From IMG/VR virus record IMGVR_UViG_2802429219_000002: a stretch of 18,727 nucleotides of DNA; one strand, written 5' to 3'. The position numbers and the translations under genes are program-made. This document shows positions 1 through 18,727 of the stretch, piece after piece. The notes beneath the pieces were generated by a model. That model was not told the origin of the DNA. It saw only the letters and a list, made by a program, of their open reading frames with translations, and did not search any database. The first letter of the stretch is position 1. The number at the start of each line of letters is the position of its first letter. The DNA is from a virus. Its lineage: Duplodnaviria > Heunggongvirae > Uroviricota > Caudoviricetes.

Positions 1-90
1 ATCGAGCATTACAATGAAAACCATCCGCATAGTGCGTTGGGTTATCGCTCTCCGCGAGAATATCGACGTCAGCGGGTAATGTTAACTTAA
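1..90 (+). CDS. IS3-family (rve/DDE integrase-core) transposase, 3' fragment; only the last 29 codons plus stop are inside the window
   Basis: Frame 1 reads IEHYNENHPHSALGYRSPREYRRQRVMLT then TAA at 88-90. The YN-x-x-R/H-P-HS-x-LGY-x-S/T-P-x-EY tail is the conserved C-terminus of IS3-family OrfB transposases (recalled, not searched). The IS family member and its terminal inverted repeat cannot be assigned by eye. Confidence 0.6.
   Translation: MEHYNENHPHSALGYRSPREYRRQRVMLT
1..90 (+). mobile_element. Remnant of an insertion sequence (IS3 family) ending just upstream of trkG; true right end not determinable
   Basis: Inferred only from the transposase 3' fragment above; the element boundary downstream of 90 is not defined. 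Confidence 0.4.
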
Positions 91-254
91 GATACAACCC
101 CTGTCTGGAAATAAGGGGGCAAGAACAAAGGTGCTCAGCAATACATAACCGAACAGTGTTTAAAGTAAAATCTTAACTACAATATGATTCATTTTGATGA
201 TTGTTTCATAAGGAACAGTGAAGTAAGATCTAAGATGAGTTAAATTTTATACAG

Positions 255-289
255 TATAATCATAATGTTGCAGCAAGGTGGTTATAATT
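255..289 (+). promoter_or_regulatory. Putative sigma70 -10 elements and Shine-Dalgarno region upstream of trkG
   Basis: Two perfect TATAAT hexamers (255-260 and 284-289) and AAGGTGG (275-281) in an AT-rich leader. No convincing -35 at canonical spacing, so the promoter call is weak. Confidence 0.25.
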
Positions 290-305
290 GAAAGAATATT
301 TAGAT

Positions 306-1763
306 ATGAATACATCTCATGTAAGAGTTGTTACTCATATGTGTGGGTTCCTGGTTTGGCTCTATAGTCTTTCAATGTTGCCACCAATGGTTGTAGCATT
401 GTTTTATAAAGAAAAAAGCCTGTTCGTTTTCTTTATAACTTTCGTTATATTTTTTTGCATTGGTGGCGGAGCGTGGTATACAACTAAGAAATCTGGTATT
501 CAATTACGTACCCGTGATGGGTTTATTATAATTGTAATGTTTTGGATTTTGTTTTCTGTTATTAGTGCATTCCCTTTATGGATTGACTCAGAACTTAATT
601 TAACGTTTATTGATGCTCTATTTGAAGGGGTTTCTGGAATAACAACAACAGGAGCAACTGTAATTGATGATGTTAGTTCATTACCTCGGGCATATTTGTA
701 CTATCGGTCACAGTTAAATTTTATAGGTGGCTTAGGAGTTATTGTTCTGGCGGTTGCTGTATTGCCATTATTGGGTATTGGTGGTGCAAAGCTTTATCAG
801 TCAGAAATGCCAGGGCCATTTAAGGATGACAAACTTACTCCCCGCCTGGCCGATACGTCACGGACACTTTGGATAACTTATTCTTTATTAGGTATTGCTT
901 GTATTGTCTGTTATAGACTTGCAGGAATGCCTTTGTTTGATGCTATTTGTCACGGGATATCCACAGTTTCGCTTGGTGGTTTCTCAACTCATAGCGAGAG
1001 TATCGGATATTTTAATAACTATTTGGTTGAGCTGGTGGCTGGTTCTTTTTCCCTGCTATCGGCTTTCAACTTCACCCTTTGGTATATTGTTATTAGCAGG
1101 AAAACGTTAAAACCTTTAATCAGAGATATTGAACTTCGTTTCTTTCTGTTAATAGCCTTAGGGGTGATCATTGTTACCTCTTTCCAGGTCTGGCATATAG
1201 GTATGTATGACTTGCCTGGAAGTTTTATTCATTCGTTTTTTCTTGCCAGCTCCATGCTCACTGATAATGGTTTAGCTACGCAGGATTATGCAAACTGGCC
1301 CACGCACACGATAGTGTTTTTGCTGTTGTCAAGTTTCTTTGGGGGATGTATAGGTTCAACTTGTGGTGGAATTAAGTCACTTCGATTTCTTATACTTTTC
1401 AAACAAAGCAAACACGAGATAAACCAGCTTTCTCATCCCAGAGCGTTGTTGAGTGTAAATGTAGGAGGGAAGATAGTTACAGATCGTGTAATGAGGTCTG
1501 TATGGAGTTTCTTTTTTCTTTATACTCTCTTCACGGTGTTTTTTATACTGGTGTTAAATGGTATGGGATATGATTTTCTTACATCATTTGCAACAGTGGC
1601 TGCATGTATTAATAATATGGGATTAGGTTTTGGGGCTACTGCATCGTCATTCGGAGTGCTTAATGACATTGCAAAATATTTAATGTGCATAGCTATGATT
1701 CTTGGCCGCCTTGAAATTTATCCTGTTATTATATTGTTTTCAGGTTTTTTTTGGCGCTCCTAA
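306..1763 (+). CDS. trkG: Trk-system K+ uptake membrane protein TrkG (TrkH/KtrB superfamily)
   Basis: 485-aa polytopic membrane protein starting MNTSHVRVVTHMCGFLVWLYSL..., with repeated glycine-rich selectivity-filter-like segments (GITTTGATV, GGLGVIV, SLGGFSTHS, NMGLGFGA). Matches E. coli TrkG from memory, the Rac-prophage paralogue of trkH. The ORF track starts at TTG 288 (AAGGTGG lies 6 nt upstream); ATG 306 gives the recalled 485-aa length. Markedly AT-rich compared with the flanking phage genes. Confidence 0.9.
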   Translation: MNTSHVRVVTHMCGFLVWLYSLSMLPPMVVALFYKEKSLFVFFITFVIFFCIGGGAWYTTKKSGIQLRTRDGFIIIVMFWILFSVISAFPLWIDSELNLTFIDALFEGVSGITTTGATVIDDVSSLPRAYLYYRSQLNFIGGLGVIVLAVAVLPLLGIGGAKLYQSEMPGPFKDDKLTPRLADTSRTLWITYSLLGIACIVCYRLAGMPLFDAICHGISTVSLGGFSTHSESIGYFNNYLVELVAGSFSLLSAFNFTLWYIVISRKTLKPLIRDIELRFFLLIALGVIIVTSFQVWHIGMYDLPGSFIHSFFLASSMLTDNGLATQDYANWPTHTIVFLLLSSFFGGCIGSTCGGIKSLRFLILFKQSKHEINQLSHPRALLSVNVGGKIVTDRVMRSVWSFFFLYTLFTVFFILVLNGMGYDFLTSFATVAACINNMGLGFGATASSFGVLNDIAKYLMCIAMILGRLEIYPVIILFSGFFWRS

Positions 1764-1900
1764 TATATGGCTGATTTATAATTGTGAGTTTAATATTATA
1801 TTGACTCACTCATTGATCCAATACCTAACTTTACCAGCAACACCTCCGCCCCCAGTAGCACTGGCTGCTGGGGTGCGTTTTATTCATAAAGCAAGGCTGT

Positions 1901-2692
1901 ATGAGCGAGAAATTGAAGATCGTCTATCGCCCTTTACAAGAACTGTCTCCGTATGCACACAACGCCAGGACACACAGCCCTGAGCAGGTGGCACAACTGG
2001 TAGAAAGCATTAAGCAATTCGGCTGGACTAATCCGGTGCTGATTGATGAAAAGGGCGAAATTATTGCTGGTCACGGTCGCGTTATGGCGGCTGAAGTGCT
2101 CAAAATGGATTCCATTCCGGTCATCGTTCTGTCTGGTTTGATGGATGATCAGAAAAAGGCGTACCGCCTGGCAGATAATCGCCTGCCGATGAATGCTGGC
2201 TGGGATGAAGATCTGTTACGGATGGAGCTGTCGGACCTAATCAATGCTGATTTTGATGTCTCCCTGACAGGCTTCAGCCCGACAGAAATTGATGAACTGT
2301 TGACGGATGTTTTGCCCGGTACAGGAAATGAGGAGGAGCCGTATACGACGAAAATTGATACGCCTGTTTATGAGCCGTCGGGCGGTAAACCGGATATCAG
2401 TGAACTGTACGACGATACGAAAACACAGGAGCTGATCAGCCGGATACGTTCGGCGTCCCTTGAGCCTGATATTGAGAAATTCCTCCTGTGTGCGGCAGAA
2501 CGTCACACGGTGTTTAATTTCAGCAGAATTGCGGACTATTACGCTCACGCCCCCGCTGAAATTCAGTGTTTTTTCGAGGAGTCGGCGCTGGTGATCATTG
2601 ATTATCAGCAGGCTATTGAAAATGGATTTGTCCGGATGACGCAGCGCATGGTGGAGATCATGCATGGTGGTGAGGAGGAGGAATATGCGTGA
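1901..2692 (+). CDS. ParB-like nuclease domain (ParB N-terminal/sulfiredoxin fold) protein with uncharacterised C-terminal region
   Basis: 263-aa ORF. The N-terminus carries the ParB signature: SPYAHNARTHSPEQVAQLVESIKQFGWTNPVLIDEKGEIIAGHGRVMAAEVLKMDSIPVIVL (box II-like IIAGHGR, IPVIV strand). The C-terminus ends in an acidic tail, GGEEEEYA. Sits where I recall ynaK in K-12 Rac (unverified). Confidence 0.8.
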   Translation: MSEKLKIVYRPLQELSPYAHNARTHSPEQVAQLVESIKQFGWTNPVLIDEKGEIIAGHGRVMAAEVLKMDSIPVIVLSGLMDDQKKAYRLADNRLPMNAGWDEDLLRMELSDLINADFDVSLTGFSPTEIDELLTDVLPGTGNEEEPYTTKIDTPVYEPSGGKPDISELYDDTKTQELISRIRSASLEPDIEKFLLCAAERHTVFNFSRIADYYAHAPAEIQCFFEESALVIIDYQQAIENGFVRMTQRMVEIMHGGEEEEYA

Positions 2693-3617
2693 TGATTTTT
2701 GCGCCTTTATTCTGACTCACGGGCGACCGGACAAAGTTCTGACTTACCGGACGTTGCGTCGTGCTGGCTATACCGGGAAAATTTTTATCGTTGTTGATGA
2801 TGAAGATAAGACACGGCATCAGTACATGGCTGAATTTGGTGAACAGGTGCTGGTGTTTTCCAAAGCCGATATCGCCAGTCGTTTTGACGAAGCCGATAAT
2901 TTCGGTGACCGCCGCTCAATTTTTTACGCCCGTAATGCCTGTTTCGACCTGGCAAAACTGGTCGGGTGTAAATACTTCATTCAGCTCGATGATGATTATC
3001 ACGAGTTCCAGTTTCGGGTGGATCGCAACTATGACCAGGCCTATTTTCCGATAAGGAAACTGGATGCGATCCTTTCTGAAATGCTGGCGTACTACGAATC
3101 AATACCTGCTCTTTCCATCGCTATGTCGCAGGGCGGGGATTTTCTTGGTGACAATGGCGGCCATGCTTCGTGGGTGAAACGCAAGGCAATGAACAGCTTT
3201 ATCTGTTCGGTTGATCGACCGTTCTCATTCATGGGGCGCATTAACGAGGATGTGAATACGTACACGAATCTCGGTCGCTGTGGTGAATTGTTTATGACGA
3301 TCGGTGCTGTCCAGTTAGGGCAGAAACAGACGCAGAAAAACAGCGGCGGAATGACCGAGCTGTATCTGGATTCCGGAACCTACGTTAAAAGTTTTTACTC
3401 CGTCATGTATGCGCCGTCGTGCGTAAAAATCTCACTGATGGGTGCCAGCCATAAACGCATTCACCATCAGGTCACCAGGAACAACGCTGCAGTAAAAATC
3501 CTTCACGAAAAATACAGGAAGAAGACACCCTGCATATCAATAGGGGTGACAAATGATTCCGTATTCGAAAGTCGAGTCTCTGGCAGCGTGCCGGATGACT
3601 GCACAACAAATCGCTGA
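2685..3617 (+). CDS. Hypothetical protein; possible GT-A-like nucleotide-sugar transferase fold (two DxD-like acidic motifs); function unknown
   Basis: Start ATG 2685 is preferred over the track's 2664 because GAGGAGGAGG (2672-2681) sits 4-6 nt upstream. Its start overlaps the ParB-like gene stop by 8 nt (ATGCGTGA), suggesting translational coupling. Hydrophobic strand + acidic motifs FILTHGRP, KIFIVVDDEDK and YFIQLDDDYHEF resemble a GT-A/Rossmann-like arrangement; this is a guess by eye only. Confidence 0.65.
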   Translation: MRDDFCAFILTHGRPDKVLTYRTLRRAGYTGKIFIVVDDEDKTRHQYMAEFGEQVLVFSKADIASRFDEADNFGDRRSIFYARNACFDLAKLVGCKYFIQLDDDYHEFQFRVDRNYDQAYFPIRKLDAILSEMLAYYESIPALSIAMSQGGDFLGDNGGHASWVKRKAMNSFICSVDRPFSFMGRINEDVNTYTNLGRCGELFMTIGAVQLGQKQTQKNSGGMTELYLDSGTYVKSFYSVMYAPSCVKISLMGASHKRIHHQVTRNNAAVKILHEKYRKKTPCISIGVTNDSVFESRVSGSVPDDCTTNR

Positions 3618-3804
3618 CGTTCTGGATGTTGATCTGAACCGACTGAAAGAAAATCGGGAAGCAATGACAGATTTTTATGCGGCCATCCGTAAGGGCAGAG
3701 CGAAAGGTGAAGCCGAGTTACGAGCGGCATTGTTTAAGCTTGCCAGAAAAGGGGATGCCTTTGCTCTGCGCGAACTACTCAGGGTGGATAAAAATCAGGA
3801 CTAA
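3553..3804 (+). CDS. Small (83 aa) HTH-like protein of unknown function immediately upstream of the small terminase gene
   Basis: SD-like AGGGGTGA 3542-3549 then ATG 3553. Overlaps the 3' end of the previous CDS by 65 nt in another frame. Helix-turn-helix-like segment MTAQQIADVLDVDLNRLKEN followed by a basic helix. Stop TAA 3802-3804 lies 3 nt before the terS ATG. Confidence 0.5.
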   Translation: MIPYSKVESLAACRMTAQQIADVLDVDLNRLKENREAMTDFYAAIRKGRAKGEAELRAALFKLARKGDAFALRELLRVDKNQD

Positions 3805-3807
3805 CTG

Positions 3808-4902
3808 ATGAGCAGACCGGACTGGGGGGCGTTGCAGCAGGAGTATATTGCTGAATACACCCGCTCCGGTATATCTCCGGTGGCATGGTGTGAAGCAAGG
3901 GGACTGAATTACGCAACAGCCCGTCGTTACATCAAAAAACCTCCGAAAAATGCGCAGACAGAAATGCGCAAAACTGCGCAAAAAAGTGCGCAGAAAAAAT
4001 CTGCGCAGACTGCACAAAAGCGGAACGAAAAATCTCAGGAAAAAAAGCCAGTATTCGATGCGGGCCTGAATGAGGGCGACGCGGAGGAATTTTCGTTCTG
4101 TCCCGATGAATTCGGCATTTCTGACCAGCAGGCTAAGTTTGCGATGCTTGTTGCTCAGGGGAAAAAGCCGACAGAGGCGTACCGACTAGCCGGTTATGAG
4201 GGGCAAGGTGCGACAGCTAACAGCAACGCCAGTCGTATGCTTAGAAATGCCAGGGTTTTTCGCGCTATCAGCTACTTCCGCAATCAGTACCAGAAACGCT
4301 ATACCGCAGACCTGGATTTACTGGTGAGTCAGTTGATGGCCATTGTCCTGGCCGACCCCAATCAGCTTGCACAATTTCGCCGTGTTAACTGCCGTTATTG
4401 CTGGGGCGAGAATCATCTCTACCAGTGGCGCGATATAGCAGAATTCGACAAGGCAGCGGCGCAGGCTTCCAGAGATGGCAAACCCGAACCGGAATATGGA
4501 GGCCTCGGCTTTGTTGATAACGCCATACCCAATCCGGACTGCCCGAAGTGCTGCGGTGAGGGAACGGGACAGCTTTATATGGCTGATACCACTCTGCTTG
4601 ATGGGGATGCGCGGCAATTATATGCAGGGGCAAAACTCGGAAAATTCGGCGTTGAGATCCTGCTGGAGGATAAGGCTGCCGCCCGGCGTGAATTGTTGCG
4701 TTTGCTTTCTGCTGGCGGGGCTTTATGTGCAGATAAGCGGCTACAGGAACTGGAAATTGAACGACGCAGAATGGAAAACCAGAAGCTGCGCAAAGAGATC
4801 GAAACGGTGGAAGATAATGAACATCCCCAGCCTGTGGCGATCAATATTAATGTGGTTGATGCCAGAGTAAGGAGTGATGAAGATGATCTCTCCGACGCTT
4901 AA
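3808..4902 (+). CDS. Terminase small subunit (Terminase_2-like) with N-terminal HTH, lysine-rich repeat linker and Cys4 zinc-ribbon-like cluster
   Basis: N-terminal HTH (ISPVAWCEARGLNYATARRYI), Terminase_2-like segment (KPTEAYRLAGYEGQGATANSNASRMLRNARVFRAI), cysteines CRYC ... CPKCC, coiled-coil C-terminus. Lies directly upstream of and overlapping the large terminase gene. Unusually long (364 aa) for a TerS. Confidence 0.7.
   Translation: MSRPDWGALQQEYIAEYTRSGISPVAWCEARGLNYATARRYIKKPPKNAQTEMRKTAQKSAQKKSAQTAQKRNEKSQEKKPVFDAGLNEGDAEEFSFCPDEFGISDQQAKFAMLVAQGKKPTEAYRLAGYEGQGATANSNASRMLRNARVFRAISYFRNQYQKRYTADLDLLVSQLMAIVLADPNQLAQFRRVNCRYCWGENHLYQWRDIAEFDKAAAQASRDGKPEPEYGGLGFVDNAIPNPDCPKCCGEGTGQLYMADTTLLDGDARQLYAGAKLGKFGVEILLEDKAAARRELLRLLSAGGALCADKRLQELEIERRRMENQKLRKEIETVEDNEHPQPVAININVVDARVRSDEDDLSDA
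3951..4016 (+). repeat. Array of five TGCGCA palindromic hexamers (plus one TGCACA variant) separated by A-tracts, inside the terS coding region; candidate pac/terminase recognition site
   Basis: TGCGCA at 3951, 3965, 3975, 3987 and 4002; TGCACA at 4011. Start-to-start spacings are 14, 10, 12, 15 and 9 bp, each hexamer flanked by A3-A6 runs. The same DNA encodes the peptide repeat KNAQTEMRKTAQKSAQKKSAQTAQKR. Confidence 0.6.
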
Positions 4903-6184
4903 TGTGCCTCAGGCGCGATTTCTTTCAATGCCCCATAAATTTAAAGCCTATATTGCTGGTTTTGGCTCGGGCAAAACATGGGTTGGGTGTGGCGGCATAT
5001 GCAAGGGGATTTGGGAGCATCCAGGTATAAATCAGGGATATTTTGCGCCAACGTATCCCCAAATTCGCGATATTTTTTACCCTACAGTGGAAGAAGTTGC
5101 TGCTGACTGGGGATTGAACGTAAAAATTAATGAGGGAAATAAAGAGGTTCACTTTTATTACGGACGCCAGTATCGGGGAACCACTATCTGCAGATCGATG
5201 GAGAAGCCACAAACGATCGTCGGTTTCAAAATTGGTAATGCGCTGGTGGATGAACTGGACATTTTGCCGAAGGAAAAAGCCAGAACGGCGTGGCGCAAGA
5301 TAATTGCGCGTATGCGTTATAAGATTGATGGACTTCGCAACGGTATTGACGTTACAACCACGCCGGAAGGATTCAAATTTGTCTACGAGCAGTTTGTTAA
5401 AGCCGTGCGTGAAAAAACAGAGCTGGCCTCACTGTATGGTCTGGTGCAGGCATCTACTTTCGATAATGAAAAGAACCTGCCAGCAGATTACATTCCTTCG
5501 CTTCTTGAATCATACCCTCCAGAGCTGATTAAAGCCTATCTTCGAGGACAGTTTACTAACCTGACAAGTGGTACTGTTTACCATCAGTTTGACCGGAAAC
5601 TGAATAATTGCGAAGAAGTGGAGCAGCCAGGGGAGCCGATTTATATTGGGATGGATTTTAACGTTGGAAAGATGGCGGGGATCGTCCATGTGCTGCGTTT
5701 GGGGCTTCCATGTGCGGTAACTGAAATCATCAATGCCTACGATACGCCGGATATGATCCGCATCATTAAAGAACGCTTCTGGCTGTATGACGGGAATGAT
5801 TACCGGAAAGTGAGGGAGATTTATATTTATCCAGATGCTTCCGGAGATTCCAGAAAATCAAGTAACGCAAGTACGACGGATATAGCCCAGCTTAAGCAGG
5901 CTGGTTTTAACGTTGTGGTGAACAGCTCGAACCCGCCAGTAAAAGATCGCGTTAACTCAATGAATGCAATGTTCTGCAATGCCAATGGTGAGCGTCGCTA
6001 TAAAGTTAATGTGAAGCGTTGTCCGGTATATGCCGAATCTCTGGAGCAACAGGTCTGGGATGATAAGGGGGAGCCTGATAAAAAATCTGGCAATGATCAC
6101 CCGAATGATGCCGGAGGTTATTTCATCGTTAAGCAATTCCCTATTGTCAAACCGACCGGAAGAGTCACATCACTTCGGATTTAA
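4883..6184 (+). CDS. Terminase large subunit (ATPase/nuclease)
   Basis: Walker A-like GFGSGKT near the N-terminus, ~434 aa, positioned between TerS and portal. Start is ambiguous (GTG 4874, ATG 4877, ATG 4883); AAGGAG at 4869-4874 favours ATG 4883. Overlaps the terS 3' end. Confidence 0.85.
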   Translation: MISPTLNVPQARFLSMPHKFKAYIAGFGSGKTWVGCGGICKGIWEHPGINQGYFAPTYPQIRDIFYPTVEEVAADWGLNVKINEGNKEVHFYYGRQYRGTTICRSMEKPQTIVGFKIGNALVDELDILPKEKARTAWRKIIARMRYKIDGLRNGIDVTTTPEGFKFVYEQFVKAVREKTELASLYGLVQASTFDNEKNLPADYIPSLLESYPPELIKAYLRGQFTNLTSGTVYHQFDRKLNNCEEVEQPGEPIYIGMDFNVGKMAGIVHVLRLGLPCAVTEIINAYDTPDMIRIIKERFWLYDGNDYRKVREIYIYPDASGDSRKSSNASTTDIAQLKQAGFNVVVNSSNPPVKDRVNSMNAMFCNANGERRYKVNVKRCPVYAESLEQQVWDDKGEPDKKSGNDHPNDAGGYFIVKQFPIVKPTGRVTSLRI

Positions 6185-6186
6185 TT

Positions 6187-7593
6187 ATGGCTGATATATC
6201 AACACCCAACCTCGACTATAACGATATGCTGGAGGCGTGGGATATTAACGACGCATTGATGGGCGGTACGCTTGAAATGCGCAGGCAGGGGGAAAATTAT
6301 CTCCCCAAATGGCCTAATGAAGATGAAGACGCTTATAAAAAACGCCTGTCTGTGGCTACGCTACTTCCTGTGTATGAAGAAAGCATCAAACAAAATATTG
6401 GGCGCATATTTGCAGAGCCGACAGTATTGAGTGAGGAAACGCCGGAAAAAATCAGGGAATATGCAGAAAATATCGACATGGAGGGGAGCCGACTGGATGT
6501 GTGGGCGCAGCAATTTTTCAGTCTCGCATTTCAGTATGGTGTGGCACATGCGCTGGTGGACTATCCACGAACGGATATGAAAGAGATTCGGACAAAAGCC
6601 GATGAAAACGCGGCCGGTGGTCGCCCGTACGTTACGATGCTGAATCCACGCCAGGTTATTGGATGGAAATCGAAAGTTGAAAAAGGGAAAGTTGTTCTCA
6701 CTGATTTGCGTATAAAAGAGGTCATCATTATTGATGGTGATGATTTCGGGCAGAAGAAGGTGGAGCAGATCCGCCATATTATGCCCCGTCGAGTAGAAAT
6801 TTATCGACGCAGCGAAGGTACTAATGGCGAATCTGTCTGGATGCTTCATGAGTCATGGAATACCAGCCGTGATGATATTCCTCTGGTAACACTGTATACG
6901 AAGAAAACAGGGTTTATGCGTGGTACACCGCCATTGCTTAATCTTGGCTTGCTGAATATCAAGCACTGGCAAAGCCAGAGCGAGCAGGACAATATTCTTC
7001 ATGTTGCCCGCGTTCCATTGCTGGTGGCCTACGGGCTGGACAGGAATGAAGAACTGACGGTTGGTGCATCCACCGCTACGATTTTTGAGGACAGAACAAA
7101 AAATGGCCTCGAATATGTTGAACATAGTGGCGCAGCGATAGAATCTGGCGAAACATCACTTGAGAAGCTGGAAAATCAGATGCGTCATGCCGGTGCTAAA
7201 CTTCTGCGGGCTGAAAATACATCCACCAAATCTGTTGATCAGACTAATGAAGAGCGGATGCAGGAACACTCGCCGCTTTATACAATGGCGAACTCCCTCG
7301 AAGATGCCCTCGATAATATTCTCCAGATAATGGCGGAATGGAGCGGAGAGAGTTGCGGTGGCAATGTGGATGTGCGCACTGAACTGGATGTATCTGCCCA
7401 GGTGTTTGACTCATCCTCCGCGCTGGCTGTTCAGTCATTGCGTCAGGGCGGTGATATACGTCAGATTGATGCGGTTCGGGTGTTGCAGGCGTTGAAATTT
7501 ATCGATCAGGATTCCCGTCCAGAGGAAGTGATCGATGAATTAAAAAATCAGAGTGTAATGCTGATGGAAATCAATGATGCAAACCGTGAATGA
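6187..7593 (+). CDS. Portal protein
   Basis: 468-aa ORF starting 3 nt after the TerL stop and followed by an F-like head morphogenesis gene; size and position are typical of a pac-phage portal. Confidence 0.8.
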   Translation: MADISTPNLDYNDMLEAWDINDALMGGTLEMRRQGENYLPKWPNEDEDAYKKRLSVATLLPVYEESIKQNIGRIFAEPTVLSEETPEKIREYAENIDMEGSRLDVWAQQFFSLAFQYGVAHALVDYPRTDMKEIRTKADENAAGGRPYVTMLNPRQVIGWKSKVEKGKVVLTDLRIKEVIIIDGDDFGQKKVEQIRHIMPRRVEIYRRSEGTNGESVWMLHESWNTSRDDIPLVTLYTKKTGFMRGTPPLLNLGLLNIKHWQSQSEQDNILHVARVPLLVAYGLDRNEELTVGASTATIFEDRTKNGLEYVEHSGAAIESGETSLEKLENQMRHAGAKLLRAENTSTKSVDQTNEERMQEHSPLYTMANSLEDALDNILQIMAEWSGESCGGNVDVRTELDVSAQVFDSSSALAVQSLRQGGDIRQIDAVRVLQALKFIDQDSRPEEVIDELKNQSVMLMEINDANRE

Positions 7594-8689
7594 ACGGCTG
7601 CGTGATGAATCAATTGCTCATGCAGTCTGGATATCCCGCTATAGCACTGGTGTGGCTGCCAGAATGGTGAAAATACTGAATGACAGCGATGCGGAGCTTA
7701 CAGCTCGCCTGCTGGTAGCACTGGACAGCCTCGATCCTGGTAGTTTTACCGTTACGCGCCTGGAGTCACTTCTGGCGAGTGTCAGAGAGGTTAACCGCGC
7801 TGCTATTAACAGCATGTTTACCAGTCTCTCCGGAGAGCTGAACGAGCTGGCAATTTATGAGGCTGGTTATCAGTTAAGTCTGTTTGATTCTCTGCTACCT
7901 GATTTTGTTGCTGATGTTCACCCTCTGGTTGGTATATCTTCTGATGCACTTTACGCCGCTGCAATGGCGCGACCATTCCAGGGACGACTGCTCAGTGAGT
8001 GGGCCTTGGATCTTGAGGCGGATCGGCTCAGACGCATAACAAATACGGTGCGTCAGGGTTTTTTGCTGGGGGATACCAATGAGCAGATCGCAAGAAAAAT
8101 TCGGGGACATGTCAGCAAGGGATTTCAGGATGGTGCATTGCAGATGAGCCGGGCTAATGCGGCCAGCATTGCAAAAACAGCGGTTGGACATCTTGCTGCT
8201 ACTGCCCGTGAGAGTTTTGCCAGCGCGAATAATGATTTGATTAAGGGTAAGCAATGGTTATCAACGCTTGATAATCGTACTACGCCACAATGTCGAATCA
8301 GGGATCGCCTCAAATATACGCTGGATAATAAACCTGTAGGTCACAGTGTGCCTTATTTGCATGGGCCGGGAAAAATTCATTTCTGCTGCCGCTCAACGGA
8401 AACGTTCATTCTGAAATCAGCGAAGGAACTGGGTATTGATGTTCGTGATATTTCCCCGGCTGAGCGGGCCAGCATGGATGGCGTGGTGGCCGGAGATACA
8501 ACCTACAGGGAATGGTTTTTGCGTCAGCCTTACACCAGACAAAAACAGATTGTGGGGGAAACCCGGGCAAAGCTGATTCGGGATGGCGGTATGTCGCCAG
8601 ATGAATTTTACACCGATAAAGGCGAATGGCTGACGCTGAAGCAACTCCGTGAGCGTGATGCACAGGTATTCAGAAAAGCAGGGATTTAA
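7574..8689 (+). CDS. Head morphogenesis protein (phage Mu F-like / SPP1 gp7-like minor head protein)
   Basis: 371 aa, overlaps the portal 3' end by 20 nt. Central region KGKQWLSTLDNRTTPQCRIRDRLKYTLDNKPVGHSVPYLHGPGKIHFCCRSTE resembles the Mu-F family core (recalled). Confidence 0.75.
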   Translation: MMQTVNERLRDESIAHAVWISRYSTGVAARMVKILNDSDAELTARLLVALDSLDPGSFTVTRLESLLASVREVNRAAINSMFTSLSGELNELAIYEAGYQLSLFDSLLPDFVADVHPLVGISSDALYAAAMARPFQGRLLSEWALDLEADRLRRITNTVRQGFLLGDTNEQIARKIRGHVSKGFQDGALQMSRANAASIAKTAVGHLAATARESFASANNDLIKGKQWLSTLDNRTTPQCRIRDRLKYTLDNKPVGHSVPYLHGPGKIHFCCRSTETFILKSAKELGIDVRDISPAERASMDGVVAGDTTYREWFLRQPYTRQKQIVGETRAKLIRDGGMSPDEFYTDKGEWLTLKQLRERDAQVFRKAGI

Positions 8690-8709
8690 ATAAATCATTT
8701 ATTACAACA

Positions 8710-8733
8710 GGCTACCTTCGGGTGGCCTTTTTT
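8710..8733 (+). terminator. Rho-independent terminator-like hairpin downstream of the head morphogenesis gene
   Basis: GGCTACC (8710-8716), loop TTCG, GGTGGCC (8721-8727; one G-U pair), followed by TTTTTT (8728-8733). Confidence 0.6.
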
Positions 8734-8793
8734 ATTGCTGCGATCCGGATGGTGAGCAGCGTAACTGTCGGAAGACTTAAACCAGGTACTAAT

Positions 8794-9558
8794 ATGAAAC
8801 TGAAAGCGGTCGAGATTAACGGAAAACAATACGCAGAAATTGATACTGCTGGCCTGCCAGTTTATGTGCACGACGATGGTAAAGAAATCGGCTTCGATGC
8901 ACCGCTGGCGATAAAAAAAATTACAGAGCTTAATGGCGAGGCAAAAAATCATCGCCTGGCTAAAGAAGCTGCAGAGGAAAAACTGGCTAAGTTTGCCGCT
9001 ATCGAAGACCCGAAGAAGGCGATCGAGGCACTGGAAATGCTGTCAAAAATCGACCAGAAAAAGCTGATCGATGCGGGACAGGTTGACCAGGTTAAGGCAG
9101 AAATTACGAAAAATTTTCAGCAGCAATTAGATGAAGAAAAGCAACGCTCTCAGATGCTGGAGACGCAGCTTTACGATTCTATGATTGGCGGTAGTTTTGC
9201 GGGTTCAAAATATATTGCCGATAAAATTGCGATCCCGGCAGATTTATTACAAGCCCGCTTCGGGCAGGCATTCAAAGTGGAAGAAGGGAAGATCGTTGCT
9301 TATGACGCTTCCGGCAACAAAATTTATTCCCGCGCGAAGCCTGGCGAACTGGCGCAGTTTGATGAGGCGCTGGAGTTCCTCGTCGAAAATTACCCTCAGA
9401 AAGACTACATCCTGAAAGCCAGTGGCAACAATGGCGGCGGCTCCCGTCCGACACAGCATGATATTGGTCAGAAAACGATGAAACGCTCTGCTTTTGATGC
9501 ACTGGATGTTGCAGGTAAGCAAAACGCATTGAAAGACGGTATCACAATTGTTGATTAA
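8794..9558 (+). CDS. Scaffolding protein (putative)
   Basis: 254-aa charged, helix-rich protein (EAAEEKLAKFAAIEDPKKAIEALEMLSKIDQKKLIDAGQVDQVKAEI...) immediately upstream of the major capsid gene. Start ATG 8794 chosen because the track's ATG 8722 lies inside the terminator hairpin. Confidence 0.6.
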   Translation: MKLKAVEINGKQYAEIDTAGLPVYVHDDGKEIGFDAPLAIKKITELNGEAKNHRLAKEAAEEKLAKFAAIEDPKKAIEALEMLSKIDQKKLIDAGQVDQVKAEITKNFQQQLDEEKQRSQMLETQLYDSMIGGSFAGSKYIADKIAIPADLLQARFGQAFKVEEGKIVAYDASGNKIYSRAKPGELAQFDEALEFLVENYPQKDYILKASGNNGGGSRPTQHDIGQKTMKRSAFDALDVAGKQNALKDGITIVD

Positions 9559-9656
9559 CACATTTGTCAGCTTCCGGATGGGAGCTGGTGTCAGGGCTGG
9601 ATAGCTCATTACTCCATCTATTCACAATTACGCAAATTTTTAAGGAATATTTAATT

Positions 9657-10655
9657 ATGGCTGGAAATACCCTGACCGGGTTGATCCCGACTATTTATAC
9701 CGCCCTGGATATTGTATCCCGTGAGCAGGTAGGTTTTATCCCTGCGGTAGCAAAAAACGCAAAAGCTGACGCCGCAGCAAAAGATCAGACGGTAACCGCG
9801 CCAGTTGCGCCTGAGGCGAAAACCGAAGATATCGTACCGGGGCCGTCAGCTCCGAATACCGGTGATCAAAATATTGGCACTGTTGATGTGAAAATTACTA
9901 AATCCAAAATGGCACCGGTTAAATGGAATGGTGAAGAACAACTGGCTCTTGGCCCTTCAGGGACTTACAACACCATTCTGGCTGATCAGTTCAAGCAGGC
10001 TTTTCGCGCCCTTGCAAACGAGGTTGAGGCTGATCTTGGTGCGTTGTATTTCGGTGCTTCCCGCGCCGTGGGAACCGCAGGGACAACGCCGTTTGGTGTT
10101 AAAGATGATCTTTCTGATGCTGCTCTGGCTCGTCAGGTTCTGGAGGATAACGGCGCACCGACAACCGATCTGCAGATGGTGCTTGGCTCCACTGCCATTG
10201 CTAATTTGCGCGGAAAACAGTCTGTACTGTTTAAAGTGAATGAATCCGGCACTGAACAGCTACTGCGTGAGGGCGTGTTGGGGCGTCTGGAGGGATTCAA
10301 TATTCACAGTTCGGCAGGTGTAAAACGAGCGCCAAAGGTTGCTGCAACTGGTTATCTCGTGAATGGCGAGAAAAAAGAAGGCGATGTTCTTATTTCCATT
10401 GATACTGGTTCGGGGAGTATTTCTGCAGGTCAGATTGTTACGTTCGCTGGCGATCCGAATCAGTATGTTGTGGCAGCAGCGACCAGCAATCTGATTACTC
10501 TTGCAGCGCCCGGACTGCGTCAGGATCTGGCCGATGATACTGCAATCACAGTTGTTGGCTCCTTTACTGCAAATATGGCGTTTGATCGCAACGCGTTTCG
10601 CTGGCATCCCGTACTCCGGCAATGCCGGAAGGTGGCGATAATGCTGATGATGTAA
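9657..10655 (+). CDS. Major capsid protein; the 3' end appears frameshifted (likely intact reading would end at 10731)
   Basis: SD TAAGGAA 9641-9647 then ATG 9657 (the track's upstream start at 9564 has no RBS). Large protein directly after the scaffold gene. After ...TANMAFDRNAF the frame gives an atypical tail RWHPVLRQCRKVAIMLMM*, while the -1 frame continues protein-like to TAA 10729-10731. Confidence 0.7.
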   Translation: MAGNTLTGLIPTIYTALDIVSREQVGFIPAVAKNAKADAAAKDQTVTAPVAPEAKTEDIVPGPSAPNTGDQNIGTVDVKITKSKMAPVKWNGEEQLALGPSGTYNTILADQFKQAFRALANEVEADLGALYFGASRAVGTAGTTPFGVKDDLSDAALARQVLEDNGAPTTDLQMVLGSTAIANLRGKQSVLFKVNESGTEQLLREGVLGRLEGFNIHSSAGVKRAPKVAATGYLVNGEKKEGDVLISIDTGSGSISAGQIVTFAGDPNQYVVAAATSNLITLAAPGLRQDLADDTAITVVGSFTANMAFDRNAFRWHPVLRQCRKVAIMLMM

Positions 10656-10805
10656 TGAATGTTACGGACCCGATTTCAGGGATTACGTTCCAGATTGCAC
10701 TGTATCGTCAGTATCGCCAGGTGCGCTATTAAGTTGGACTGGCATGGGGTGTTTCATCAGTGAAGCCGGCACATGGTTGTCTGATTCTTGGTTAAACATT
10801 CAAAC

Positions 10806-10825
10806 GGGGCTTCGGCCCCATTTTT
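10806..10825 (+). terminator. Rho-independent terminator downstream of the capsid gene
   Basis: GGGGC (10806-10810), loop TTCG, GCCCC (10815-10819), then A and TTTTT (10821-10825). Confidence 0.65.
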
Positions 10826-10837
10826 AATGGAGGGCAT

Positions 10838-11014
10838 ATGGCCGGATTAACTAAAGAGCAAAGAGCACAGCGTGAAGCCGCACAAAAAACGCAAATTGAG
10901 TTAGTGGTTATGGTGACCGATTATCAGATGTTTCCCGGCGCACCAACTATCGCTAATGTTCATCCTGATGAAGTTGACAACTGGAAGGCTATGGGCTGGA
11001 AAACTCAGGAGTAA
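10838..11014 (+). CDS. Small hypothetical protein (58 aa), not present in the supplied ORF track
   Basis: SD GGAGGG 10829-10834 then ATG 10838; translation MAGLTKEQRAQREAAQKTQIELVVMVTDYQMFPGAPTIANVHPDEVDNWKAMGWKTQE, stop TAA 11012-11014 lying 3 nt before the next gene's ATG 11018. Confidence 0.5.
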   Translation: MAGLTKEQRAQREAAQKTQIELVVMVTDYQMFPGAPTIANVHPDEVDNWKAMGWKTQE

Positions 11015-11017
11015 CAC

Positions 11018-11413
11018 ATGATCACTTACGTGACCTGTGATGACGTTGATAATGCGTTTGGGAACGCCTGGACGAGTGAGAACGCTAAAAATAAAGCTGT
11101 TTTAATGGCTAATGCCTGGCTTAATGGCTTCAACCTGAAAATTAACCCATCCCGTATTCCGGAAGAGGTAAAACTTGCGGGAGCATATGCAGCCAGAATT
11201 GCCTCATTCGGTAAGTTGTTTCAGCAGAAAAATGATTCTGGCGTTGTTATCAGTAAAGCCGTGTCGGCTGACGGGGTCAGTGTATCGAAATCATTTGCTG
11301 AGTTGCCAGCAAACAGCACTGTATTGCTTGAACCCGATTTACAGCTTGCGATAGCACTGCTGAAACCGTACGGACTTAGTCGCTCACAAGTCAGGGTTGT
11401 GAGGGGGGGATAA
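11018..11413 (+). CDS. Head-tail connector / adaptor protein (gp6-like)
   Basis: 131 aa; N-terminus MITYVTCDDVDNAFG is typical of the gp6-like head-tail connector family (recalled); located just after the capsid gene. Confidence 0.7.
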   Translation: MITYVTCDDVDNAFGNAWTSENAKNKAVLMANAWLNGFNLKINPSRIPEEVKLAGAYAARIASFGKLFQQKNDSGVVISKAVSADGVSVSKSFAELPANSTVLLEPDLQLAIALLKPYGLSRSQVRVVRGG

Positions 11414-11796
11414 TGGGGCTTCGTGAAGAGATTCAGTCAGAGGTTGCCGCTGCTTTTGATGAGGATTTAGCGGACGCCGTGAGTGATTTTTCTGGTTCTT
11501 ACGTTACGCACCGGCACTGGGATCCTGTGACGGAAACTGGCGGCGAATCCACCGCAATCTATACCGGGCGAGGCGTGTTGACACGTTATAAGCTGGGCAG
11601 AATTGATGGGATTAATATTTTGCATGGTGACCTTAAATTAACCGCTCTGGTATGCGAGGTTACGGATAAACCCGCTGTCGACCATATTATTGAGATTTAT
11701 GATCCTGTATTAAGGCAGTTACAACGATACGAGGTAATTACAGCGAGTGTAGATCCTTCCGCATCAGTTTACTCTATCCAGTTAAGGAGAGCGTAA
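11413..11796 (+). CDS. Head-tail joining (head closure-like) protein
   Basis: 127-aa ORF whose ATG shares one base with the upstream stop (TAATG); assignment is by position in the connector cluster. Confidence 0.55.
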   Translation: MGLREEIQSEVAAAFDEDLADAVSDFSGSYVTHRHWDPVTETGGESTAIYTGRGVLTRYKLGRIDGINILHGDLKLTALVCEVTDKPAVDHIIEIYDPVLRQLQRYEVITASVDPSASVYSIQLRRA

Positions 11797-12177
11797 ATGG
11801 CAAAGGCATGGGATATAGAACCGTCAATATTTGCCGGGATGATTGAGGAAGATGTGGGGCTGAAAATTCGCTACATCGCTATGCAGATTCTTACTGCTAT
11901 TGATATTGCTGCTCCGGTTGATACCGGACGTTTCAGAAATAACAACCTGGTGTCGTTACAGCATCCCGATTTTGGTATATCTGATAACGTGGATCCGAAC
12001 GGTACGATTGCGGTTCAGCGTGGGATCGGGGTTATTTCGAAAGCTGCAAATTACGGAGTTATTTATATCCAGAATAACCTTCCTTATGCAGAGGCTCTTG
12101 AAAACGGTCATTCACAACAAGCGCCAACTGGCGTGTATGCCAACGCTTTTCATGGTGTTTTACAGGCTTACAAATGA
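11797..12177 (+). CDS. HK97 gp10-like neck / tail completion protein
   Basis: 126 aa with a PVDTGRFRNN motif characteristic of the HK97 gp10 family (recalled); ATG follows the upstream TAA directly. Confidence 0.65.
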   Translation: MAKAWDIEPSIFAGMIEEDVGLKIRYIAMQILTAIDIAAPVDTGRFRNNNLVSLQHPDFGISDNVDPNGTIAVQRGIGVISKAANYGVIYIQNNLPYAEALENGHSQQAPTGVYANAFHGVLQAYK

Positions 12178-12566
12178 CGTTTACTGAAATCAGAAATACG
12201 GTTATTTCCAGAATGACGGCACAGACGATTATTGATGGAAAAGACGTATTGTATCCGAACGCGCCAACGTTCGATCCTTCCGGTAAGTTAATCTGGGCGC
12301 GGTTAAGTAATATTCCCGGGCAGGCTGGAGTTAATGAAATTGGCGCGGGGCCGATTGTTTATCGCACGGGGATAATCATTATTCAGTTATTTGTCCCCGC
12401 AGGTTCTGGTTCAAAACTCATTACTGAGACAGCCGATAAATTGCGGGAACTGTTTGAGTTTCAGGATGACGATCGTCTCAGTTACCAGGCTGTTTCCTCA
12501 ATAGCCGTTGGCGAAAAGAATGGCTGGTTCCAGCTTAATCTTCAAATTCCATATCGCGCGCTCTAG
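12174..12566 (+). CDS. Tail terminator-like protein (gpU analogue)
   Basis: 130-aa ORF overlapping the previous gene by ATGA, immediately upstream of the major tail gene. Confidence 0.55.
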   Translation: MTFTEIRNTVISRMTAQTIIDGKDVLYPNAPTFDPSGKLIWARLSNIPGQAGVNEIGAGPIVYRTGIIIIQLFVPAGSGSKLITETADKLRELFEFQDDDRLSYQAVSSIAVGEKNGWFQLNLQIPYRAL

Positions 12567-12592
12567 CGCAATTAATGACATAGGAGGCTCCT

Positions 12593-13555
12593 GTGAGTTC
12601 AGGTGCAAAGGTTATCTCGGCATTTATCCGGGAGACGGTTGCAGGCACTACGCCAGCAAGTGGTGACTGGAGTTTATTAAAACGCACAAGCTGGGGAGTA
12701 AAACCCACCCAGAATAAAGGCGAAAATAATGAGATTGGTGGCTCCCGGATGGCTCAGGGGGCGACGCCTGGCACTGTGGATGTCGGCGGTGATGTTGGTA
12801 CCAAATTTCGCTGGGGTCAACATGATGATTTTCTTGCATCCTGTTTCGGCGCGGAATGGTCAGGCGATTCTCTGACAATGGGGAATGAGCGAATAACATT
12901 TTCTCTAGCGACCTATGCGTCCGATGTCGGAATTGCCTCTGTCGTCAGAGGAGCGCAGGTTGGCTCATGGAAAATGCAGATCCCTAACGACGGCGATATT
13001 ACAGCGACCGTAACCTTTGCCGGACTGGACTGGGAATCAAAGGCCGATGATACGAATTTTATCAAAGGCGAACCTGTGGATAGTGCAGGAAAGCTACGTT
13101 ATTCGTTTAAGGAGGTTTCAGCAGTAAGCCTGAATGGTGTTGCCGGAGGTAACGGTTTTTGTATCGACAGTTTTGATATTCAGTTCGATAACAAACTCCA
13201 GACACAGCGTTGTATCGGGACTGGCTCGCCTTATGCAGGAGCAAATATTCCGACTACTTTTACACCGTCCGGTACGGTGACGCTTTCATGGTCTAAAGCC
13301 GCGTGGGAAATCTGGAGTAAAACACTGACTGGAGAAACAGTTCCGTTCAGCTTTACGCTTTCGAATGGAGAGGGGGCATACACTTTCAGTTTCCCGAAGG
13401 TTCAGGTGTCAGGTGAATGGCCTGATGGGGGTAATAGCGACATTATCCAGGTTCAATTGAGCATTACCGCAGCAGATGAAGCACCTACGATAACCAGAAA
13501 AAAAAATTCCCCGGCTGCCGTGATCGCAAAAGCCAGTGCTGAGGCGATTAGTTGA
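12593..13555 (+). CDS. Major tail (tube) protein
   Basis: GTG start 12593 preceded by AGGAGG 12582-12587; 320 aa, Gly/Ser/Thr-rich beta-type composition; lies between the tail terminator and the G/GT chaperone genes, as in lambda (V). Confidence 0.7.
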   Translation: MSSGAKVISAFIRETVAGTTPASGDWSLLKRTSWGVKPTQNKGENNEIGGSRMAQGATPGTVDVGGDVGTKFRWGQHDDFLASCFGAEWSGDSLTMGNERITFSLATYASDVGIASVVRGAQVGSWKMQIPNDGDITATVTFAGLDWESKADDTNFIKGEPVDSAGKLRYSFKEVSAVSLNGVAGGNGFCIDSFDIQFDNKLQTQRCIGTGSPYAGANIPTTFTPSGTVTLSWSKAAWEIWSKTLTGETVPFSFTLSNGEGAYTFSFPKVQVSGEWPDGGNSDIIQVQLSITAADEAPTITRKKNSPAAVIAKASAEAIS

Positions 13556-13603
13556 TTTTCCGTTATTCCTCCTGTGGTACTGCCCTACAGGGGGACGCAT
13601 TGA

Positions 13604-14065
13604 ATGAGGTTATGGATGTTTATTCTTAATCAGAAAATTATCATTGGTGGAGAACGCTGGTTTACGCCAATGAAGGACTTAAAACCTGTAGACGGGTTAA
13701 AACTGTTGGTGGCAAGCAGCGATAACGATCAGTATCGCTCCCGTAATGCATTAATCCGTCGCCACATTGAGAAAATGGATGCCAGTTTGCACGTCGGAAC
13801 GAAGGAGTTTGATATTTCAAAGGTTTCCGAGGTGGATTCTGTTGATGATTTACTCATTGATAATGCCGCTCGTTATCTGCTGAAAGACTGGAAAGGGGTT
13901 GGTGAACTGGTTAATGGTGTTGAGGTTGCACTGGAATATACGGCAGAACGAGGGATCGCGCTGCTTAAGCAGAATCCAGAGTTGTACTGGCAGATCCTTG
14001 CAGAAGCAGCCAGCATCGCCCAGGGTAAAGAGCAGCAGAAGCAGGATACGATAAAAAAGCCATAG
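13604..14065 (+). CDS. Tail assembly chaperone (lambda gpG analogue)
   Basis: SD AGGGGGA 13589-13595 then ATG 13604; 153 aa, acidic, ending ...EQQKQDTIKKP*. The slippery heptamer A_AAA_AAG sits 4 nt before the stop. Confidence 0.75.
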   Translation: MRLWMFILNQKIIIGGERWFTPMKDLKPVDGLKLLVASSDNDQYRSRNALIRRHIEKMDASLHVGTKEFDISKVSEVDSVDDLLIDNAARYLLKDWKGVGELVNGVEVALEYTAERGIALLKQNPELYWQILAEAASIAQGKEQQKQDTIKKP

Positions 14066-14373
14066 CTGCCCAGCGGTGGTTATCGGAGTTCGGGGGAGAA
14101 AGGGGGGAAAAGGCAAGATGGAAGCGAGAAAAACTCAGGTTGCCACCGATACCGGAACCAGAAATAGACCCGGTGCTTAAGGAGTTGTTGTACGCCTATT
14201 CGGTAATATCCCGTGCCCGACGTTATGCTGGAATGGCTGGGGTGCCTTTGCCTTTATCTCTGACAGAGATAAATGAATATTTAGCCACTCATCCGGTATT
14301 GATTGAGCGCGATGAATTTGAAGCAGTGATCTTTGCACTGGATGACCAGTATTTTCAGGAGCAGTGTGTGTAG
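13604..14373 (+). CDS. Tail assembly chaperone GT fusion made by programmed -1 ribosomal frameshift (join 13604..14059 and 14059..14373)
   Basis: The -1 frame is open from the slippery site through 14373 (107 codons), reading KKAIAAQRWLSEFGGERGEKARWKREKLRLPPIPEPEIDPVLKELL...; the track shows this ORF only from an internal TTG at 14140. Confidence 0.65.
14053..14059 (+). promoter_or_regulatory. Slippery heptamer A_AAA_AAG for the G/GT -1 frameshift
   Basis: Zero-frame codons ATA AAA AAG (I K K) at 14051-14059; X_XXY_YYZ pattern with an open -1 frame downstream. Confidence 0.65.
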
Positions 14374-14493
14374 TTGTTAATTACGTACACTCTGTTACAG
14401 AGATGTGATGGTGTCTTTAATTAAATCGATGATGCTCCTGGAGAAAAGCATTGCGTGGCCTCGTAATCGCTATATCTACTATTATGTCGCCTG

Positions 14494-14518
14494 AAACCCA
14501 CTTCGCGGTGGGTTTTTT
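14494..14518 (+). terminator. Rho-independent terminator-like hairpin in the T-to-tape-measure intergenic region
   Basis: AAACCCAC (14494-14501), loop TTCGCG, GTGGGTTT (14508-14515), T-run to 14518; followed by SD AGGAG 14525-14529 and the tape measure ATG 14539. Confidence 0.55.
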
Positions 14519-14538
14519 GTTGTCAGGAGTTTTAATAA

Positions 14539-17500: not shown

Positions 17501-17772
17501 CTGGTGTTTTTGGTGAGGCTGGACCGGAAGCTATTATGCCATTAACACGAACTTCCGATGGTTCTCTTGGTGTCAGAGCTATTAATAGTAAAAGTGGTAA
17601 TGGAGGCGGAGATATTACCTATGCCCCTGTATACCAAATCACTATTCAAAATGACGGCCAGAATGGAGAGATTGGCCCTCAGGCAATAAAAGCACTTATG
17701 GGGATGGTTGATCAGCGGGTGCAGGGCAATCTGTTAAATATGCGACGTGATGGGGGAATGTTAAGTGGCTAA
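14539..17772 (+). CDS. Tail tape measure protein (lambda gpH analogue)
   Basis: 1077-aa ORF, long Ala/Gln/Glu/Lys-rich coiled-coil-like N-terminal half, hydrophobic central segment ([27 protein letters not shown]), located between GT and M. Confidence 0.9.
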
Positions 17773-18103
17773 TACGGAAGAATTTCACTGGTTACCAGAG
17801 GATGGAATGAAAACAGAAAATAAACCATCGATAAAAACTGTAAGATTTGGTGATGGTTATGAGCAACGAAGTCCAAATGGACTTAATCATTCTCTGCGCG
17901 TTTTCACCTGTGATTTCAAAGTTGAGGCGAATGAACGTGATTCATTTGAAAAATTTTTAGCCCGGCATGAAGGCTATAAATCTTTTTTTTGGCGCCCGCC
18001 GGGTATTAACAGAAAAATCAGAGTGGTGTGTCGAACGTGGTCAGCGACAGAACATATCACCTATACCGATTTTTCGTGTCAGTTTGACGAAGTGGTGATC
18101 TGA
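17765..18103 (+). CDS. M: Minor tail protein M (lambda gpM-like)
   Basis: Translation ...[35 protein letters not shown]...[19 protein letters not shown]... parallels lambda gpM (recalled ...FRWKVKPGMD...VRFGDGYSQRAPAGLN...). GTG 17765 is taken as start because the extension aligns with the lambda M N-terminus; ATG 17807 is an alternative. Overlaps the tape measure stop. Confidence 0.85.
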
Positions 18104-18727
18104 TGCAGGACATACGACAGGAAACACTGAATGAATGCATCCGTGTGGAGCAGACGGCCAGCGTGGTGCTCTGGGAAATTGATCTGACAGAGGTCGGTGG
18201 GGAGCGTTACTTTTTCTGCAATGAGCAGAATGAAAAAGGTGAACCGGTTACCTGGCAGGGGCGAAAGTATCAGGCGTACCCCATTCAGGGAAGCGGCTTT
18301 GAGATGAACGGTAAGGGCAGCAGCGCACGTCCCACACTTAAGGTATCTAACCTGTATGGCATGGTCACCGGGATGGCCGAAGACCTGCAGAGTCTGGTCG
18401 GCGGAACGGTGGTCAGGCGTAAGGTTTATGCCCGTTTTCTGGATGCGGTGAACTTCATCAACGGAAACAGCGAAGCCGATCCGGAGCAGGAGGTGATCAG
18501 CCGCTGGCGCATCGAGCAGTGCAGCGAACTGAACGCGGTTAGCGCGGCCTTTGTGCTGTCTACTCCGACGGAAACGGATGGTGCTGTTTTTCCGGGGCGC
18601 ATCATGCTGGCCAACACCTGCACCTGGACCTATCGCGGTGACGAGTGCGGTTATAGCGGTCCGGCTGTCGCGGATGAATATGACCAGCCAACGTCCGATA
18701 TCACGAAGGATAAATGCAGCAAATGCC
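18103..18727 (+). CDS. L: Minor tail protein L (lambda gpL-like), 5' partial; runs off the window end
   Basis: ATG 18103 shares its A with the M stop codon (TGATG). Translation [72 protein letters not shown]... closely matches lambda gpL as I recall it, including the C-terminal cysteines (CTWTYRGDECGYSGP...KCSKC). No stop before position 18727. Confidence 0.9.
   Translation, partial: MQDIRQETLNECIRVEQTASVVLWEIDLTEVGGERYFFCNEQNEKGEPVTWQGRKYQAYPIQGSGFEMNGKGSSARPTLKVSNLYGMVTGMAEDLQSLVGGTVVRRKVYARFLDAVNFINGNSEADPEQEVISRWRIEQCSELNAVSAAFVLSTPTETDGAVFPGRIMLANTCTWTYRGDECGYSGPAVADEYDQPTSDITKDKCSKC

Follow-up and report, generated by a model that had tools for sequence, protein, structure and literature searches.

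What is an insertion sequence (IS) doing directly upstream of trkG in the late region of a Rac-like prophage? The window considered here, that is, the whole stretch of 18,727 nt that was analysed, opens inside a transposase gene and runs on into trkG. A sequence-only reading of it took this proximity as a sign that the IS had brought about the acquisition of trkG or a rearrangement of the region, possibly with the loss of the lysis genes that normally precede this position, and proposed that the IS might also provide trkG with a promoter. The explanation that best accounts for the evidence as a whole, and in which we have high confidence, is a recent, strain-specific insertion of ISEc48 into the 3' end of the lysis gene Rz after trkG was in place. 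The earlier picture would then be corrected on three points: trkG would neither have come with the IS nor owe its promoter to it, and only a few codons would have been cut from the lysis module.

The identity of the element follows from its coding sequence and its ends. In frame 1, positions 1–90 of the window encode IEHYNENHPHSALGYRSPREYRRQRVMLT, i.e., 29 codons (1–87) followed by a TAA stop codon at 88–90. This 29-residue tail matches the Pfam family rve_3 (E 3.7e-6, 27 bits against a gathering cutoff of 26.5), with the motif YN..HPHSALGY.SP, and among the NCBIfam models it scores best with “IS2 transposase TnpB” (E 1.2e-10) and “IS3 family transposase” (NF033516, transpos_IS3), which rules out a phage integrase in place of an IS transposase. 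The description of 1–90 (+ strand) as the last 29 codons of an IS3-type transposase is thus confirmed, and the element can be given a name: these 90 nt, the C-terminus of the OrfAB/OrfB transposase with its stop codon, are 100% identical to genes annotated by the NCBI PGAP pipeline as ISEc48, a name that this annotation uses in many E. coli genomes. Positions 1–130 are 99–100% identical to genes annotated as “IS3-like element ISEc48 family transposase”, and in several genomes, the match at 100% extends over 1–128 or 1–129. Among 5426 complete genomes of E. coli, 1841 contain a match to this end; roughly one matching record in four has an identity below 95%.

The first 127 nt of the window coincide throughout (127/127) with the right-hand terminus of an intact, 1336-bp copy of ISEc48 (L002), which reads TGAGCTGGCCCCCTGAAATACC ... 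GGAAATAAGGGGGCAAGAACA and has imperfect terminal inverted repeats. In this copy, OrfA contains HTH_Tnp_1, and OrfB contains HTH_21, rve (2.6e-18) and rve_3 (3.8e-16); intact copies with identical ends have a transposase annotated with “programmed frameshift”. The DDE transposase of the IS3 family, with its rve core and conserved C-terminal motif, is therefore represented here, as are the TG...CA inverted repeats of that family: intact copies begin with TGAGCTGG, the copy in the window ends with ...AAGAACA at 127, and the arms of the intact copies are 38 nt long with 74% complementarity. ISEc48 can be placed in the IS2 group because it is 67% identical to IS2 at the nucleotide level over the element and because its ends resemble those of IS2; the two have in common the OrfA/OrfB frameshift layout and the architecture of the ends but differ in the sequence of the right inverted repeat, TGTCTGGAAATATAGGGGCAAATCCA in IS2 versus TGTCTGGAAATAAGGGGGCAAGAACA here. 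Window 1–127 is, in short, the right end of ISEc48 (IS3 family, IS2 group). The four papers found to name ISEc48 mention it only in passing.

The right boundary of the element can be fixed to the nucleotide. ISEc48 ends with ...GGGGGCAAGAACA, a canonical CA-3', at position 127, since the flanks of six independent copies cease to be related directly after ...AAGAACA. The right terminal inverted repeat (IRR) occupies 82–127 (+ strand), its arms having been found in the full copy L002, and its core, TGTCTGGAAATAAGGGGGCAAGAACA at 102–127, occurs once in the window, where none is expected by chance. The transposase C-terminus, the IRR and the CA-3' are the same as in known ISEc48 copies, whereas the insertion site, the 3' end of the Rz gene of a Rac-like prophage, differs from theirs.

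The DNA beyond this boundary belongs to the prophage. From inside Rz to trkG, window 128–320 is 100% identical to E. coli 042 (L001 3001–3193), in which Rz encodes a protein of 154 aa (PF03245, E 2.4e-49) that ends at L001 3041, which is equivalent to window 168. The Rz frame thus continues past the IS to its stop codon, and 128–168 (+ strand) corresponds to the last 41 nt of this gene, with 13 codons, KGAQQYITEQCLK, and TAA; the product is an i-spanin, or “lysis protein”, homologous to rzpD and rzpR. The native Rz–trkG intergenic spacer at 169–305 (+ strand), with a GC content of about 25–30%, is identical in IS-free prophages. It is followed at 306–1763 (+ strand) by trkG, which encodes a Trk-type K+ transporter (PF02386, TrkH, E 1.8e-143), is a moron of Rac-like prophages and is annotated as trkG in all the relatives. 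From the transposase stop codon to the ATG of trkG at 306 there are exactly 215 nt, as the sequence-only reading had estimated, and from the end of the IS to the start of trkG there are 178 nt. That reading had treated the 215 nt as a spacer; the length stands, but the description as spacer throughout does not, as 91–127 is IS repeat, 128–168 is Rz and only 169–305 is intergenic. The two TATAAT hexamers that it noted are indeed present, at 255–260 and 283–288, in DNA that is AT-rich (GC 25–35% across about 101–350).

Two features of the trkG neighbourhood may be described here. An island of low GC content (25–42%, compared to 46–52% in the flanking phage genes), by which trkG stands out as foreign, extends from 169 to about 1810, and its borders are sharp: one lies at the Rz stop codon, the other about 90 nt ahead of the ParB-like gene. 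Directly downstream of trkG and just before the terminase genes, there is a conserved pair of overlapping genes (1901–2692 and 2664–3617) for a ParB_N/Srx-domain protein and a TAGT protein (TET-associated glycosyltransferase, PF20691, E 8e-35). This pair may constitute a DNA-modification module of Rac-like phages; no TET/JBP gene was seen in the window. A search of the whole window against Rfam returned no family.

How common is this arrangement with and without the IS? Window 128–18727 is colinear with a prophage of E. coli 13E0767 (100% coverage, 99.4% identity), where the order is essD (holin), rrrD (lysozyme), Rz, trkG, the gene for the ParB/Srx protein, genes for hypothetical proteins, the small and large terminase genes, the portal gene and the head and tail genes. 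At least 80% of window 128–18727 is covered in 694 complete genomes, and E. coli 042 is among those with the uninterrupted order essD–rrrD–Rz/Rz1–trkG–ParB–terminase, at 100% identity to the window from position 128 on. With a probe of 160 nt that has the insertion site at its centre, the empty site is found intact in 1519 of the 5426 complete genomes. A public assembly collection lists the identical TrkG protein in 1222 blocks, and all ten of the contexts shown for it have the order holin–lysozyme–Rz/Rz1–TrkG–ParB_N–TAGT–terminase without an IS. The Rac prophage of E. coli K-12 (rzpR–rzoR–trkG–ynaK) and the full-length Rac-like prophages likewise have the order Rz/Rz1–trkG–ParB-like gene, with a near-identical spacer, and trkG as an AT-rich, H-NS-repressed moron is a further shared feature. 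Compared to K-12 Rac, the prophage in the window retains the full late region, from the terminase to the tail genes, and has an additional ISEc48 in Rz.

The junction between the IS and Rz, in contrast, is absent from all 5426 complete E. coli genomes. Exact searches with a 40-mer spanning the junction gave no match in the GTDB representative genomes or in IMG/VR, and one with a 28-mer gave none in the JGI metagenome contigs. Both the element and its prophage setting are already known; the insertion site was absent from all of the collections searched. Since the IS-free order is widespread and the junction is present in no complete E. coli genome, ISEc48 is very probably a late, secondary insertion into an existing Rz–trkG arrangement rather than the vehicle of trkG. 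As for the label of remnant given by the sequence-only reading, the edge of the window cuts the element, and the 127 nt that are visible are identical to intact, recently active copies of ISEc48. The insertion makes a useful strain marker, and it probably accounts for the starting point of the window and perhaps of the contig.

A mechanism for the insertion can be outlined. ISEc48 moves by a copy-out/paste-in pathway, and one copy would have transposed into the 3' end of Rz in a Rac-like lambdoid prophage, with its transposase gene oriented in the same direction as the late operon and trkG, at a time after trkG was already present in this type of prophage. The left flank of the IS would then be expected to be ...CTTGAAGGTGCTCAGCAAT from Rz. 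If the element is complete (1336 bp) and generated a 15-bp duplication (see below), the left junction should read ...CAACTTGAAGGTGCTCAGCAAT joined to TGAGCTGGCCCCC, with a length of around 1351 bp over that of the empty site. As for the consequences to lysis, the insertion would replace the C-terminal 8–13 residues of Rz, including Cys152, by residues encoded by the IS; with a 15-bp duplication, the Rz frame would pass from ...QLEGAQQ into LSWPPEIPDSRCILK and then a stop codon, giving a protein of 161 aa in which YITEQCLK, with Cys152, is lost. Berry, Rajaure and Young are said to have shown that, in lambda Rz, the penultimate residue, Cys152, forms an intermolecular disulfide. The Rz1 frame of the IS-free relatives stops 19 nt short of the insertion point, at a distance of 197 nt upstream of trkG.

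The length of the duplication deserves attention in its own right. Exact 15-bp direct repeats flank all six of the intact ISEc48 copies that carry flanking repeats (L002 1277–1291 and 2628–2642; L005 and L006 377–391 and 1728–1742; three copies in L064, plasmid p2RM10740). For one of them, the insertion in yihO, the reconstructed empty site containing a single 15-mer is contiguous in 3884 genomes, with a best identity of 100%; since the empty site has the 15-mer only once, the repeat is a genuine target-site duplication. No clear consensus emerges among the target sites, which are AT-rich (25–44% GC), and some copies of ISEc48 are without flanking duplications (L065 and L008/L061). In the IS3 family, target duplications are normally of 3–5 bp, with 5 bp for IS2, so the 15 bp of the intact ISEc48 copies depart from this norm and are three to five times longer. 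The length of the duplication is descriptive rather than diagnostic, and the placement of ISEc48 in the IS3 family by its transposase and its ends stands. A literature search found nothing linking the IS3 family with 15-bp repeats. On the basis of the six copies with 15-bp repeats, the right-hand duplication at the site in Rz is predicted to be AAGGTGCTCAGCAAT at 128–142.

A second insertion at the same place was found in E. coli 23CRST010 (L004 2197–3527), in which an IS2 in the opposite orientation has a flank on the trkG side that starts at the same nucleotide, equivalent to window 127/128 (AAGGTGCTC...). Here, the duplication made by IS2 is 4–5 bp as opposed to the 15 bp of ISEc48. Independent insertions of two IS2-group elements at one nucleotide, with opposite orientations, suggest that they share a hot spot, namely the AAGG at the 3' end of Rac-type Rz. 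We put forward only tentatively, and with somewhat less than even confidence, the combined proposal that ISEc48 integrates by a 15-bp staggered cut and that this AAGG is a hot spot of the IS2 group. Unless ISfinder already lists a duplication of 15 bp for this element, the finding would indicate that members of a much-studied family of transposases can capture their targets with an unusual geometry. The wider interest of the locus is limited to this duplication and to the insertion nucleotide shared with IS2.

Could the IS nevertheless have brought trkG, or removed the lysis genes? The proposal that it mobilised trkG into the prophage, whether as a composite transposon or by one-ended transposition, draws on adjacency alone, the end of the IS being as close as 178 nt to the gene, and it is extremely improbable. 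The comparison with Rac-like prophages lacking the IS, which the sequence-only reading had recommended, shows that the arrangement of Rz, spacer and trkG exists without it: the Rz–trkG junction, the spacer and trkG itself are 100% identical in IS-free prophages, to which the empty sites in complete genomes may be added. Moreover, the boundary of the IS does not fall at the edge of the trkG island (169) but 41 nt outside it, within Rz coding sequence of normal GC content. A composite transposon carrying trkG is rejected on the further ground that a second IRL or IRR, of either ISEc48 or IS2-like type, is absent from the 18.7-kb window at up to three mismatches, which means that trkG is not bracketed by two copies. 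The suggested loss of the lysis genes fares little better, given that the tail of Rz is kept at 128–168 and that the insertion itself would remove only the last 8–13 codons of the gene. One might still suppose that, after the insertion, an adjacent deletion, an inversion or a recombination event removed the lysis cassette (essD, rrrD and the 5' part of Rz/Rz1) upstream. This would be compatible with a left flank that lies outside the window, the window and perhaps the contig starting inside the IS, and the ISEc48 copies without target duplications (L065, L008 and L061) imply that recombination or deletion has occurred at some copies. On the other hand, the closest relatives all retain the cassette, essD–rrrD–Rz is still upstream in 23CRST010 with its IS2 at the same site, and a start inside a multicopy IS is what a break in a short-read assembly would give, all of which makes such a removal unlikely.

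The remaining alternative concerns expression: the IS might alter that of trkG via a hybrid promoter based on a -35 in the IRR, via read-through from the transposase gene or via a disruption of the silencing of the AT-rich island by H-NS. The first route has a precedent in that the right end of IS2 contains an outward-reading -35, which, together with a -10 at the left end and a mandatory spacer of 17 bp, forms the minicircle junction promoter Pjunc (PMC3219604). By alignment with the IS2 end, the putative outward -35-like hexamer of ISEc48 would be TGGAAA at 106–111 (+ strand), homologous in position to the -35 of Pjunc. The hexamers located 16–18 nt downstream of it, however, match TATAAT at only 1/6 (AAGGTG, 128–133), 0/6 (AGGTGC, 129–134) and 2/6 (GGTGCT, 130–135) positions, which argues against a hybrid promoter at the end of the IS. 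Moreover, a two-hexamer promoter scan of 1–420 yielded two hits against the 1.7 expected, none of them at the junction, and neither of the TATAAT sequences upstream of trkG passed, as they have no acceptable -35. These two hexamers belong to the native prophage DNA; the window contains 10 TATAAT sequences in all against 10.3 expected from its composition, with 7 of the 10 lying inside the AT-rich trkG island. Read-through is favoured by the location of the transposase gene and trkG on the same strand and by the scan of 1–420, which found no terminator-like site on the + strand between 90 and 306, but the transposase promoters of the IS3 family are weak. The third route is suggested by the partial repression of trkG by H-NS in K-12, where a fragment from upstream of trkG drives a luciferase reporter (PMC9898762). 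Since this fragment is free of any IS, trkG has a promoter of its own, and the IS is not needed as the source of one, contrary to what had been proposed; furthermore, all 137 nt of the AT-rich native spacer are kept in the window. An alteration of trkG expression by the IS is, on balance, quite unlikely. The effect on the gene is probably small beyond a possible weak read-through transcription, and the candidate routes would be this read-through from a weak IS promoter and, possibly, a changed silencing by H-NS.

Searches with the end of the IS brought to light other copies and fragments of ISEc48. In E. coli, several hits proved to represent a single ancestral site, which is next to a fragment of IS66 and has no duplication. 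The scan of GTDB gave two loci only. That of IMG/VR gave 35 loci, about 30 of which have a common flank, ATGAT(C/T)AGATTCCCTGG; none of the 35 has a usable target duplication, and the left end was absent in the common-flank loci that were checked. This flank marks a truncated ISEc48-like fragment at a fixed site, which is found in the phage records ev099 (L058), mEp332 (L059) and PhiR70_1 (L060) as well as in these roughly 30 loci of IMG/VR (among L021–L055). In the phage records, the fragment is about 97% identical to window 1–128 and adjoins a gene for an AraC-family regulator; in ev099, it is near an integrase gene, and in mEp332, the flank has one further variant. This fragment looks like an old, inherited remnant, unlike the copy in the window.

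Two further occurrences were seen. One is an element of 402 bp (L054 781–1182) whose left end resembles that of ISEc48 (TGAGCTGGCTCCTTGAAATGCCAGACAG) and whose right end is exactly that of ISEc48; it has no flanking duplication that could be seen and may be an internally deleted, MITE-like derivative of ISEc48. The other is an exact match of 27 nt to the right end of ISEc48 in a contig of 576 bp from Acinetobacter idrijaensis (L057, JQCU01000296.1), which could reflect either contamination of this assembly or a spread of the element across genera.
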